Of a stretch of 42,721 bases of DNA, positions 14,755 through 18,288 are shown in pieces. The position numbers and the translations under genes were made by a program. Position 1 is the stretch's first letter; every line of letters starts with the position of its first letter. This DNA comes from a virus (taxonomy: Duplodnaviria > Heunggongvirae > Uroviricota > Caudoviricetes): IMG/VR virus record IMGVR_UViG_2703718828_000007; one strand, 5' to 3'. The notes beneath the pieces were generated by a model. That model was not told the DNA's origin, searched no databases, and worked only from the letters and a program-made list of their open reading frames with translations.

Positions 14755-15444
14755 ATGAACACTCAATTCCTCGAATACGTGCGCCAGCAGCTGATGGTGG
14801 CTACCGCCGATTTAAGTGGTGCGACGAAAGGGCAGTTGATGGCGTGGCTTGAGAACGCGCAGTTTGATACGGGAACGTTTAAACGTAAGAAGCCTCGAAT
14901 ATTGGATGAAGTGACCGGGAAAATGATTACGCTTGATAACCCACCGATTCCCGGCAAACAGTCGCATACCAAGGGTTCGCATATTCCCTTGGTGCAACCG
15001 GTTGAGTATTCAACGGCATCGTGGCGCCGCGCACTGATGACGCTCGAAGAACACCAGAAGGCCTGGTTGCTATGGAACTATAGCGAGAATGTGAGTTGGG
15101 ATAATCAGGTGCTGATTACTCAGTGGGCGTGGTCGAAATTTTGCGAGCATCTGGCCGGGAGGAAGGTGGCGAAGAAGACCGTCGAACGGTTGCGACAGCT
15201 TATCTGGCTGGCGGCACAGGATGTGAAGGCTGAATTGGCTGGGCGTGATGTCTATCAATATGGTGATCTGGCTGCGCTGGTGGGAGTTAACAAAACAAAC
15301 TGGTCTCAAAATTACGTGGAACATTACAATGTAATTATCAGCCTGTATAAGGGACTCGACTCCAAGGCGCTACTTCATGTTTCGCGATCACGTTCACAAC
15401 AAAAGGCAGCAAACTATCAGCAAGGTATTGCAAAAATGAACTAA
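14755..15444 (+). CDS. Late-gene antiterminator, Q-like (tentative)
   Basis: 229 aa; last gene before PR'-like promoter, tR'-like terminator and lysis region. Confidence 0.45.
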   Translation: MNTQFLEYVRQQLMVATADLSGATKGQLMAWLENAQFDTGTFKRKKPRILDEVTGKMITLDNPPIPGKQSHTKGSHIPLVQPVEYSTASWRRALMTLEEHQKAWLLWNYSENVSWDNQVLITQWAWSKFCEHLAGRKVAKKTVERLRQLIWLAAQDVKAELAGRDVYQYGDLAALVGVNKTNWSQNYVEHYNVIISLYKGLDSKALLHVSRSRSQQKAANYQQGIAKMN

Positions 15445-15456
15445 TTAGCATATATT
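15428..15456 (+). promoter_or_regulatory. PR'-like late promoter
   Basis: TTGCAA, 17-nt spacer, TATATT overlapping the Q-like stop codon. Confidence 0.4.
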
Positions 15457-15490
15457 TCGTGTAAATTTGATATTGTGCCAACAGTATATA

Positions 15491-15516
15491 AACCCGCCAG
15501 TGAGCGGGTTTTTTAA
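15491..15516 (+). terminator. tR'-like rho-independent terminator
   Basis: ACCCGC-CAGTGA-GCGGGT hairpin followed by TTTTTT; about 35 nt after predicted late start site. Confidence 0.6.
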
Positions 15517-15866
15517 TTTTGCGGAATACTTTTTTAATCGCAGAAAAGCATGTCGTTTCGTTTTGATAGGAAAAAACGATGGATAGGCAACACAAGGCTC
15601 TAATGTGCGTAAGTTTGATGGATATGATAATTACGCACAGCTTATCAACAATATTTTGCTATTAGTTAAGTTGTGAATAACTTTTTTTGTTGATAACTCT
15701 TTTTTCTGTGGATAAGTCTGTAGGTTTATTAAATTCTTATGCACAAGTAGAACGCTGATGGTCCTGTACAATCCCGTAAAAGCTTCAATACTGATGACAG
15801 CAATATAAAAACCTATCCAGTGAAGCTATTGAAAACATACAGAATTTAGTTTTCTTCGGGAAAATT

Positions 15867-16622
15867 ATGTCAGGACAGCCTGAGTCAAAAGAACAAGAAC
15901 TGCTTGCAACAATCCTCGATTACTTCCAGAAGGGAGAAGTCCCGGATACAGACACTATTGCGGAAATTGAGCACGACATTGCTAAACTTCCAATAAGTGA
16001 GCGCGCACATGCGTATGCATGGCTTAATGGAACTCTCGGGCGTCACTCTGATGCAGTACGTTTATTCAAAGACGCGATGAGCTCTGGGAGTCCAACGATC
16101 GCACAAAACTACTTGGCGTATCTTTCTCGTTCGGCTCATAACTATGAGCATCGCGTTGAGTTGTTTAGAATAGTTGAGCTTTTCCCTTCACATGAACTGA
16201 GGCTTGTAGCAAGAAACGCTGCATTTTGTATCGGCAACGACAAGTTGGTTAAAAAGTTCTCCCTCAAAATGGCTGCTCTTTATGATGGCCAAGAGCGAGA
16301 GGATATAATCAATCAGGGAAATTATATGGCTGAACAGATTGTTGATTTCAAAAACGCTACCCGTCTTTCTTCTCGAGAACTAGAAGCCCTTTGCGATCAA
16401 GCTGAAGAGATTGCGAACAAGCGCGGTATTAACTGTTCAAGTGTTAGCTATTATCTTGGTGGAGATGATGACAATGCATTCATCGTTAGAGCCCAAACTG
16501 CTGATCCGCAGGTTTTAGCTGAAATGAACATGGAACTGTTGGTTTTGCTCTCAGATGATAGTTATCGGAACAGCCCTTTTACATCCTGGTTCCAAAGCGA
16601 TGAAAAAAGAGGGATTTACTGA
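15867..16622 (+). CDS. Hypothetical protein (251 aa), gene 1 of AT-rich two-gene cassette
   Basis: No recognisable motif; predicted helical; stop overlaps gene 2 start (TGATG). Confidence 0.6.
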   Translation: MSGQPESKEQELLATILDYFQKGEVPDTDTIAEIEHDIAKLPISERAHAYAWLNGTLGRHSDAVRLFKDAMSSGSPTIAQNYLAYLSRSAHNYEHRVELFRIVELFPSHELRLVARNAAFCIGNDKLVKKFSLKMAALYDGQEREDIINQGNYMAEQIVDFKNATRLSSRELEALCDQAEEIANKRGINCSSVSYYLGGDDDNAFIVRAQTADPQVLAEMNMELLVLLSDDSYRNSPFTSWFQSDEKRGIY

Positions 16623-17026
16623 TGAGCGTATCGGGGAAAGATTTTATTGTTTTTGCTGGTAAATGCATTTCTCACAACGATGAAATCGGTTACAGAAACG
16701 CCATTGGTCGAGCGTATTATGGAGTTTATCATGAAACGCTTGATAAGCTTGAGAAATGCCCAAACAAGTCGTCACACCAAGCTGTTCGCGACTATCTTAC
16801 AAATGATGCATGGTTAAAAGGAAATGAGCCGTTTGAAAAAATGAAACTCATTTCTATGGGAACAATGCTGAGACATTTGCATACCCGACGTAAATGGGCA
16901 GATTACGAGCTTGATAGAACTTTAAGTAAGGCTGATGCGGAAGCTATATTGATAATGGCTAACAAAGCTATTGACACCCTTCAGCAGATGTATGAGCAGG
17001 TTTATCCATCCGAACCTGCTGCTTGA
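16622..17026 (+). CDS. Hypothetical protein (134 aa), gene 2 of cassette; tentative HEPN-like R-x6-H spacing
   Basis: GRAYYGVYH segment; translationally coupled to gene 1; terminator follows. Confidence 0.6.
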   Translation: MSVSGKDFIVFAGKCISHNDEIGYRNAIGRAYYGVYHETLDKLEKCPNKSSHQAVRDYLTNDAWLKGNEPFEKMKLISMGTMLRHLHTRRKWADYELDRTLSKADAEAILIMANKAIDTLQQMYEQVYPSEPAA

Positions 17027-17043
17027 TTATCTATTCGAAATAA

Positions 17044-17067
17044 CCTCGCTTAAGCGGGGTTTTTTTA
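17044..17067 (+). terminator. Rho-independent terminator after two-gene cassette
   Basis: CCTCGC-TTAA-GCGGGG hairpin (one G-U pair) followed by TTTTTTT. Confidence 0.55.
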
Positions 17068-17235
17068 TGCCTTCGCACCTCCATTTCGGAGGTATTTTGC
17101 TGTGAAAATGGGCGGCTGGTGGATGTTGGAGCACCCACCAGCCATCAGCTCATGCTTTCAGGTCACAAGCTAACCAAGGCCCATTGCTTTAGCGCAAAAG
17201 CAAAGAGAGCCTATCAGAGTTACGCTTATTGATCT

Positions 17236-18288
17236 ATGAAAAATACTGTAAATATAAACAGTGTCGAGTTAGTCAACGCTGATAGCCTGCAATACATCGC
17301 CACTCTCCCTGATAACTCCATTGACCTGATAGTCACGGATCCGCCGTACTTCAAAGTGAAACCCAACGGCTGGGACAATCAGTGGAAAGGGGATGAGGAT
17401 TATCTTCGCTGGCTTGATATGTGCCTCGCACAATTCTGGCGAGTGCTTAAACCTGCTGGCAGTCTTTATCTTTTCTCCGGTCACCGCCTGGCGGCAGACA
17501 TTGAGATCATGATGCGTGAGCGGTTCAACGTCCTGAACCACATCATCTGGGCTAAACCGTCGGGCCGCTGGAATGGCTGTAATAAAGAGAGTCTGCGCTC
17601 TTACTTCCCTGCAACAGAGCGCATCCTCTTCGCTGAGCATTACCAGGGGCCGTATAAACCAAAGAGCGACGGTTACGCGGAGAAGGGAAGCGAGCTGAAG
17701 CAGCATGTAATGACTCCCCTAATTTCTTATTTCCGGGATGCACGTGAAGCGCTTGGCATAACCTCAAAACAAATAGCCGATGCGACTGGAAAGAAGAACA
17801 TGGTGTCTCACTGGTTCAGCGGTAGCCAGTGGCAATTACCGAATGAATTAGACTACCGGAATCTTCAGTCCCTTTTCACGCAGGTAGCCATCGAAAAGCA
17901 CCAGAACGGCGAACTGGCAACACCACACCACCAGCTGGTGGCTATGTGGCATTCGTTAAATCGCAAGTATTCAGAGCTGCTCGAAGAGTACAAATCGCTT
18001 CGGCGGCATTTCTCTGTTTCCGTATCCGTTCCTTATACCGACGTCTGGACACATAAACCCGTTCAGTTTTACCCAGGTAAACACCCATGCGAAAAACCCG
18101 CTGACATGTTGCGGCAGATCATCAACGCCAGCAGTAAGCCTGGTGATGTGGTGGCTGATTTCTTTATGGGGTCCGGTTCGACCGTGAAAATCGCGCTGGA
18201 ACTTGGCCGCCAGGCTATCGGCGTTGAACTCGAGGAGGACAGGTTTAGCCAGACGGTGGAGGAAATAAGGGCGTTAACAGGGGAATAA
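17236..18288 (+). CDS. DNA methyltransferase, beta-class amino-MTase (N6-adenine or N4-cytosine), orphan
   Basis: Motif IV DPPY near N-terminus (LIVTDPPYF) and motif I FFMGSGST near C-terminus; no restriction endonuclease partner recognised. Confidence 0.8.
   Translation: MKNTVNINSVELVNADSLQYIATLPDNSIDLIVTDPPYFKVKPNGWDNQWKGDEDYLRWLDMCLAQFWRVLKPAGSLYLFSGHRLAADIEIMMRERFNVLNHIIWAKPSGRWNGCNKESLRSYFPATERILFAEHYQGPYKPKSDGYAEKGSELKQHVMTPLISYFRDAREALGITSKQIADATGKKNMVSHWFSGSQWQLPNELDYRNLQSLFTQVAIEKHQNGELATPHHQLVAMWHSLNRKYSELLEEYKSLRRHFSVSVSVPYTDVWTHKPVQFYPGKHPCEKPADMLRQIINASSKPGDVVADFFMGSGSTVKIALELGRQAIGVELEEDRFSQTVEEIRALTGE

Follow-up and report, generated by a model that had tools for sequence, protein, structure and literature searches.

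The region examined here is the leader of a two-gene cassette in a 42.7-kb viral stretch (IMG/VR record IMGVR_UViG_2703718828_000007; 42,721 nucleotides, hereafter the window), which is an Escherichia coli lambdoid (lambda-like) prophage. Between 15604 and 15745, upstream of genes for a TPR-like and a HEPN-like protein, we found a dense array of DnaA boxes. Judging from the sequence, DnaA very probably binds this array in vivo, and the array rather probably serves as an operator that controls the cassette promoter in the manner of mioC. Promoter control is the preferred reading because the array is part of the cassette module and keeps a fixed distance from a conserved -10 hexamer. An earlier note on this DNA had proposed DnaA-dependent regulation of the downstream cassette; this putative role is the explanation best supported by sequence, conservation and position.

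DnaA boxes were scored against the E. coli consensus TTATCCACA and its relaxed form TTWTNCACA, and the scan of the whole window accepted at most one mismatch. The four nonamers listed in the earlier note were all recovered: TTATCAACA at 15642-15650 (plus strand; box 3), TGTGAATAA at 15672-15680 (box 4, TTATTCACA on the minus strand), TGTTGATAA at 15688-15696 (box 5, TTATCAACA on the minus strand) and the perfect TGTGGATAA at 15707-15715 (box 6, the consensus TTATCCACA on the minus strand). A fifth box within one mismatch, absent from that list, was found at 15737-15745 (TTATGCACA, plus strand; box 7). One of the five is thus perfect (15707), two match the relaxed consensus (15672 and 15737) and two are one mismatch from perfect (15642 and 15688). 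The inverted repeat described upstream of them was confirmed and proved one base longer than claimed (TGTGCGTAA at 15604-15612 and TTACGCACA at 15631-15639), with arms that can be extended imperfectly to 16 nt. Two features of this repeat had been overlooked: both arms are box-like TTACGCACA sequences on opposite strands, each one mismatch from TTWTNCACA (the left arm is box 1, minus strand), and the right arm forms a double DnaA box with box 3 (TTACGCACA-gc-TTATCAACA, 15631-15650). In total, seven box-like sites lie within about 140 bp.

The clustering of these sites was far above expectation for the local base composition. The window contains 15 boxes with at most one mismatch, five of them in the 104 bp from 15642 to 15745, and all three of its TTWTNCACA matches fall inside the cluster; the K-12 chromosome has 307 TTWTNCACA boxes in 4.6 Mb (PMC5835720). 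For the 141-bp test region, 0.04 boxes were expected against the five observed, and five was not reached in any of 20,000 shuffles that kept the dinucleotide composition of the local AT-rich DNA. Samples drawn from a Markov model of local composition agreed, and chance in AT-rich DNA, which the earlier note had allowed for, was rejected. By the same criterion, the maximum number of boxes per 150 bp was five in the array, three in oriC and DARS2 of K-12, two in DARS1 and datA, and one in the dnaA promoter. Three same-orientation boxes at 15671-15715 are parted by T-tracts, with start-to-start distances of 16 and 19 bp. This spacing corresponds neither to the helical repeat nor to the 2-3 bp of a double box, and bending by A/T-tracts is raised here only as a query.

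A density above that of datA, DARS1, DARS2 and oriC is also what would be seen if the array acted on the host as a datA- or DARS-like element, titrating or remodelling DnaA as a single copy or after induction and so shifting the timing of initiation. A mioC-type promoter region titrates about eight DnaA monomers per copy, a protein of a cryptic prophage, YfdR, is known to target DnaA (PMC5835720 and PMC5742627, respectively), and the order of orientations here, one forward box (box 3) followed by reverse boxes (4, 5 and 6), echoes the DARS core. We nevertheless regard such a role as unlikely. The array holds no full match to the IHF consensus WATCAANNNNTTR, its best candidates having one mismatch; IHF is essential for datA and DARS2, and a datA-like element was rejected on this ground. 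A DARS-like element was likewise rejected: the orientation pattern is present, but the gaps are 21, 7 and 10 bp, compared with 5 bp (I-II) and 3 bp (II-III) in the K-12 DARS1 core. The rigid spacing to the -10 hexamer and the linkage to one cassette lineage only, rather than to replication or lysis modules, argue for promoter control, of which titration would in any case be a by-product. The earlier note had further suggested a sequestration site. This suggestion was not borne out: GATC is absent from 15445-15900 (0 in 456 bp, with about two expected), so there is no substrate for SeqA-type sequestration.

Chromatin immunoprecipitation sequencing (ChIP-seq) of K-12 DnaA identified 16 bound regions and showed that the in vivo unit is the double DnaA box, two 9-mers in the same orientation 2 or 3 bp apart (PMC11317965). 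We therefore scored both strands of the window with a matrix built from 13 published double boxes. The three best scores of the window all lay in the array, and the best score elsewhere was 13.0. Double box I, TTACGCACA-gc-TTATCAACA on the plus strand (15631-15650), joins the right arm of the inverted repeat to the first box of the earlier note; it scored 22.0, with 15 of 18 positions matching. Double box II, AAACCTACA-gac-TTATCCACA on the minus strand (15707-15727), scored 14.1 and includes the perfect box 6 as its strong half. Double box III, TTATTAAAT-tc-TTATGCACA on the plus strand (15726-15745), scored 14.3 and has box 7 as its strong half. ChIP-bound K-12 sites scored 14.8 to 26.4 on the same matrix, which places double box I within the bound range and double boxes II and III just under its low end. 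Among 3,000 samples of local composition, none had a maximum of 22 and none had three sites of at least 14. Because it has the top score, which no sample reached, double box I rather than the lone perfect box is, by sequence, the strongest site both statistically and biologically.

We further compared the leader among contigs encoding relatives of the first cassette gene (gene A) at about 75% identity, including a prophage of Enterobacter hormaechei; these comprise six distinct lineages, across which cassette protein identity falls to 74%. Mean pairwise identity was 0.84 in box columns and 0.60 in the spacers between boxes (Mann-Whitney p 8e-8). Double box I is a double box in all six lineages (scores 16.4-22.0) with an invariant 2-bp spacer length, and double box III scored 14.3-17.9 in all six, its box 7 being 100% identical throughout. 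Double box II is kept in five of the six, where relatives read AAATCCACA-gag-TTATCCACA (19.8) or the same arrangement ending in TTATACACA (17.8). Individual half-sites turned over while double-box scores and spacer lengths persisted. Box 1 reads TTACACACA or TTATGCACA in relatives, always retaining TTA..CACA, and an arm of the inverted repeat has become TTATGCACA in contigs L013 and L026. Box 4 is present in three lineages, degenerate in one and lost in two; box 5 is kept in five, and the sixth (L013) has TTACACACA in the same place. Box 6 reads TTATCCACA, or TTATACACA in one lineage (changed at consensus position 5, the N) and TTACCCACA in another (position 4). Decayed boxes were often replaced by other box-like 9-mers. 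Position 5 is among the two most variable positions, and TTATCCACA, TTATACACA, TTATGCACA and TTATTCACA all occur. This pattern suggests that the box columns are under purifying selection, which would argue for a current transcriptional role.

The inverted repeat was also considered as an RNA hairpin (-11.6 kcal/mol, z -1.97) and rejected, since its arms change independently in the six lineages: the changes leave G-U pairs or mismatches, and no pair is compensatory. The arms are accordingly read as two box-like sites and not as structured RNA.

The variation within the boxes bears on whether the 9-mers might be operators of another DNA-binding protein of cassette, phage or host origin. Positions 6 (C or A) and 4 (T or C) vary more than would be expected of canonical DnaA boxes, the pattern TTAYNMACA fits slightly better than TTATNCACA, and TTATCAACA contains the IHF core ATCAA. 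Modules resembling toxin-antitoxin systems are, moreover, commonly autoregulated. Set against this are one perfect R1/R4 box and two TTWTNCACA matches, half-sites paired at the 2-3 bp specific to DnaA dimers, and the exact recurrence of TTACGCACA as the upstream half of the purH site validated by ChIP. None of the sites matches the IHF consensus in full. The cassette itself encodes a TPR-like and a HEPN-like protein, and gene A has no recognisable DNA-binding fold and no helix-turn-helix, so no rival autoregulator suggests itself. Operators of another protein are therefore very improbable in our judgement.

The distances between the array and the cassette promoter are consistent with DnaA acting as its regulator. 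The -10 hexamer, TACAAT, lies at 15767-15772 on the plus strand within a block, CTGTACAAT, that is invariant in the six lineages. No -35 consensus was found at the proper spacing to TACAAT, and the end of box 7, where a -35 element should begin, is 21 bp before the -10. The succession box 6, 30 bp, box 7, 30 bp, TACAAT has identical spacing in all lineages. In distant cassette relatives, a near-consensus promoter, GTGAC(A/T)-16-TA(G/C)AAT, stands at a similar distance from the ATG, with its -10 in the same place as TACAAT. A minus-strand promoter called inside box 4 by the promoter scan was discarded, as it is not conserved in relatives.

Two further blocks of the leader are invariant in the comparison. 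The first, TTTGATAGGnAAAAACGATG (15562-15581, plus strand), is unchanged in six lineages and resembles a Shine-Dalgarno sequence followed by ATG. A leader peptide starting at ATG 15579 was rejected, because the open reading frame, 28 aa here and 5-33 aa in relatives, is conserved in neither sequence nor length. The second, AAGCTTCAATACT (15780-15792, plus strand), would lie at the 5' terminus predicted for the cassette mRNA; pairing with 15821-15830 is possible, in a fold that is not significant (z -0.84).

We propose that host DnaA would bind as dimers or short oligomers to the double boxes at 15631-15650, 15707-15727 and 15726-15745 and to the flanking single boxes. As box 7 occupies the place of the -35 element, DnaA occupancy may set the level of cassette transcription in the lysogen. 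The analysis establishes the boxes, their statistics, conservation and position, and their membership in the cassette module; from these we infer the binding in vivo, the start of transcription, and the direction and biological purpose of the control. Repression that rises with free DnaA-ATP is favoured, as at mioC and dnaA p2, and we lean modestly towards repression over activation. Activation is the minority alternative, suggested by the lack of a -35 hexamer in this promoter, where box-free relatives show one close to consensus. As side effects, several DnaA molecules would be titrated by each copy of the array, and transcripts leaking past the upstream terminator tR' may be halted by the bound DnaA. 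An extension of this scheme, in which DnaA is the sensor input of an immune or toxin module, appears rather unlikely. The array would silence the cassette at normal levels of free DnaA-ATP and release it once DnaA is titrated out or inactive, for instance when an invader replicates or replication arrests; an amplified prophage would in turn soak up DnaA and shut down host initiation. If true, the locus would combine a phage-borne, datA-like sponge for DnaA with a defence-like effector, an arrangement for which there is no earlier description.

Several observations weigh against control of the cassette promoter by DnaA. The relatives at 45-62% identity to the cassette have no DnaA boxes, so the link to DnaA, as read from these sequences, is lineage-specific and the box-free relatives work without it. 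The six lineages that keep the boxes are only modestly diverged, and the least conserved position among their boxes is consensus position 6 (C or A), a fixed C in the canonical box. Regarding the sites themselves, double box I has no perfect half-site and the perfect box is paired with a weak half in double box II, while only 13 of 32 perfect single boxes were bound by DnaA in the K-12 ChIP-seq data (PMC11317965). The scoring matrix has a basis of only 26 published half-sites. Finally, the transcription start near 15779 is a prediction, and a second weak promoter candidate, TGTACA-16-AATACT, would put the boxes farther upstream.

The position of the array in the late-operon leader raises a different possibility. 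The Q antiterminator gene (14755-15444; PF06323 match, E 1e-97) is followed by a candidate late promoter pR' called by the promoter scan, TTGCAA-17-TATATT, at 15428-15456 on the plus strand; it overlaps the end of the Q gene, lies outside the array and has hexamers that are kept in relatives. A terminator scan identified a tR'-like intrinsic terminator with a hairpin and U-tract at 15490-15518 (plus strand), which forms the left boundary of a mobile module. The hairpin folds at -12 kcal/mol (z -3.9), and its stem sequence varies among relatives with pairing retained. Rfam matches were all below threshold and fell only on this hairpin, with none in the array, and an RNA element was rejected. 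The pR'-tR' unit is very short (15428-15518), implying a terminated RNA of roughly 55 nt. The array lies in a 348-bp AT-rich stretch (33% G+C) between tR' and the ATG at 15867, and begins about 85 bp 3' of the tR' hairpin.

In this position, DnaA bound to the array might halt polymerase that leaks through tR' in the lysogen, shielding the cell from read-through into the HEPN and lysis genes, while Q-modified polymerase would pass. In the classical case of such a roadblock, asnC transcripts stop at the mioC-proximal box. The K-12 study describes DnaA on transcribed DNA as a roadblock that favours termination (PMC11317965). The lysis genes, however, are already insulated by two more strong terminators (17042 and 18293), the boxes occur in both orientations, and a roadblock would not require boxes 6 and 7 to be phased with the -10 hexamer. 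As the primary function of the array, insulation is distinctly unlikely.

We also weighed whether the units of box and T-tract could be the remains of a plasmid or phage-plasmid origin captured with the cassette, that is, a relic or secondary replication origin. Units of CTGTGGATAAC plus eight T stand in tandem beside iterons in an unrelated origin-like region of viral contig L028, and iteron-type origins with TTATGCACA boxes also occur in contig L034. The array itself has no iterons, no GATC, no 13-mer unwinding element (at most two mismatches allowed) and no adjacent initiator gene, and the prophage has its own O/P-type replication genes about 4 kb upstream of the array. A present-day transcriptional role is favoured by purifying selection acting on the boxes and by their constant phase relative to the promoter, and we find an origin scarcely credible. 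The L028 region (2620-2830; IMG/VR UViG_3300045988_153594) has CTGTGGATAACTTTTTTTT units in tandem, with GGGGTGATRA-type repeats on either side and a D5-like primase/helicase gene nearby, and looks like an iteron-type origin. The L034 region (1300-1800; metagenome contig Ga0310690_10019280) is also origin-like, with GGTGTAACC-type iterons and several TTATGCACA, TGTGCATAA and TGTGTATAA boxes, and is unrelated to the window.

The array and cassette form a unit that moves independently of its surroundings. A 501-bp query (15400-15900) was 100% identical to E. coli strain VE-F5, in which the annotated order is replication genes, nin region, antiterminator Q, two hypothetical genes, DNA methyltransferase, holin, lysozyme, Rz-like protein and terminase. 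Other E. coli prophages carry the identical module behind a different Q gene, with the match starting at the hairpin (15493) in several of them. In the prophage of E. coli ECCWS199 (L002, 4871-4945), a tRNA-Thr lies between a different antiterminator (269 aa) and the module of terminator, DnaA array and cassette; the tRNA and the different Q before the module mark 15493 as a recombination boundary. Conversely, contig L035 has the same Q and pR' with a different downstream region, and no DnaA box is present there. The sequence comparisons thus indicate that the array travels with the cassette module. The module is bounded by terminators at 15490 and 17042, contains the conserved -10, is present or absent independently of Q type, and has a G+C content of 42% against about 53% in its flanks. 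By its sequence it is a classical moron, consisting of a terminator, the DnaA array, a promoter, two genes and a terminator, placed between Q and the lysis genes. Q-modified polymerase would read through the moron in lytic growth, and its own promoter presumably expresses the cassette in the lysogen.

The two genes of the moron lie on the plus strand. Gene A (15867-16622) encodes a 251-aa protein with a TPR-like helical repeat and a small alpha/beta C-terminal domain, and gene B (16622-17026) encodes a 134-aa HEPN-like protein whose start overlaps the stop of gene A (ATGA). The cassette is closed by an intrinsic terminator at 17042-17068 (plus strand), whose 8-bp stem includes 5 GC pairs and precedes 8 consecutive T (7 of them lie beyond the called stem). 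Neither gene was recognised by PADLOC, Pfam or NCBIfam. At the family level, Pfam HEPN was detected in 8 of 24 members of the gene B family (best E 1.5e-5), and the family profile matched a 'HEPN domain-containing protein' in the PDB (9xbd, E 3e-5). The predicted structure of gene B has a predicted local distance difference test (pLDDT) score of 93.7, and its top Foldseek hits, although weak, were HEPN proteins. R30-x6-H37 is invariant in the family, in agreement with the Rx4-6H motif of HEPN proteins. Sequence and structure model together identify gene B as HEPN-like, any nuclease activity being putative. By analogy with HEPN toxins and with HepS, a Salmonella prophage protein compared below, the two genes plausibly form a toxin-antitoxin or defence module.

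Downstream of the cassette, an N6/N4 DNA methyltransferase gene (17236-18288) is bracketed by the intrinsic terminators at 17042 and 18293. The middle of its product resembles a helix-turn-helix domain only weakly, below threshold (E 9e-4). The gene is missing from some relatives that bear the cassette (L014 and L008) and therefore appears to be a second, independent moron.

The cassette is rare. Gene A fell into 13 clusters among 5.8 billion proteins, and a search of one genome per species gave a single spurious match. The family always occurs as a gene pair, usually in enterobacterial prophages, in the interval from Q to the lysis genes. Among 5,426 complete E. coli genomes, 12 have the leader, each together with the cassette; it gave no match among the deposited phage genomes of INPHARED. 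A metagenome pattern scan returned only an unrelated iteron origin.

DnaA-regulated promoters and clusters of DnaA boxes are well known; what is unusual here is a density above that of oriC, the location in a mobile prophage moron, and the uncatalogued pair of TPR and HEPN genes. The 16 regions of the K-12 DnaA regulon all relate to replication, nucleotide supply, repair or RNA metabolism (PMC11317965), and none of these regions lies at a gene recognised as prophage-borne. Literature searches found no precedent for DnaA boxes at the promoters of prophage morons or toxin-antitoxin systems. If DnaA does control the cassette, its regulon would extend to accessory, defence-like genes on mobile prophage DNA, and a phage module would read or perturb the state of host replication initiation. 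With three double and several single boxes in about 140 bp, the locus is also a compact natural test of the double-box rule. It further flags an uncharacterised TPR and HEPN pair that current catalogues of defence systems miss, a candidate for a new toxin-antitoxin or defence system. Given its rarity among E. coli genomes and the computational nature of the evidence, the importance of the locus hinges on experimental confirmation.

Among known systems, iteron-type origins of plasmids and phages such as that of L028 share with the array a repeated unit of box and T-tract with a period of 16-19 bp; the array differs in having no iterons, initiator gene or unwinding element. datA, DARS1 and DARS2 resemble it as non-coding clusters of boxes in mixed orientation, at a density that is equal or higher here, whereas the array has neither IHF nor Fis site consensus, does not show the core spacing of DARS (5 bp and 3 bp), and is phased with a promoter. 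For the cassette, the nearest counterpart is HepS of the Salmonella prophage Gifsy-1, an abortive-infection protein that is likewise a HEPN accessory gene of a lambdoid or siphovirus-type prophage (PMC13043305). HepS is a single protein, whereas the HEPN gene of the cassette comes after one for a TPR-like partner. The two systems are likened by domain and location; the literature on HepS holds nothing on control by DnaA.

The double boxes of K-12 at purH, polA, nrdA and nrdD (Stringer, Fitzgerald and Wade 2024) have the same architecture of paired 9-mers with a gap of 2-3 bp, and the purH double box has TTACGCACA as its upstream half. These loci have one double box each, at core-genome promoters of nucleotide and replication genes, whereas three double boxes and additional single boxes are found here in horizontally acquired DNA. 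The mioC region titrates about eight DnaA monomers and is fully repressible by DnaA (PMC5835720), and upstream transcripts are terminated there (PMC11317965). It differs from the array in that there is no sequence homology, boxes with at most one mismatch number one at mioC and five here, and mioC adjoins oriC whereas the array lies in a mobile prophage moron with TPR and HEPN genes. In both, however, a good box stands just upstream of TACAAT, 25 bp away at mioC (the TTTTCCACA box) and 21 bp away here, and weaker boxes extend about 100 bp upstream, the double box of mioC being TTAATCCCA-tac-TTTTCCACA. By this analogy, the mioC promoter is the closest architectural match to the array.

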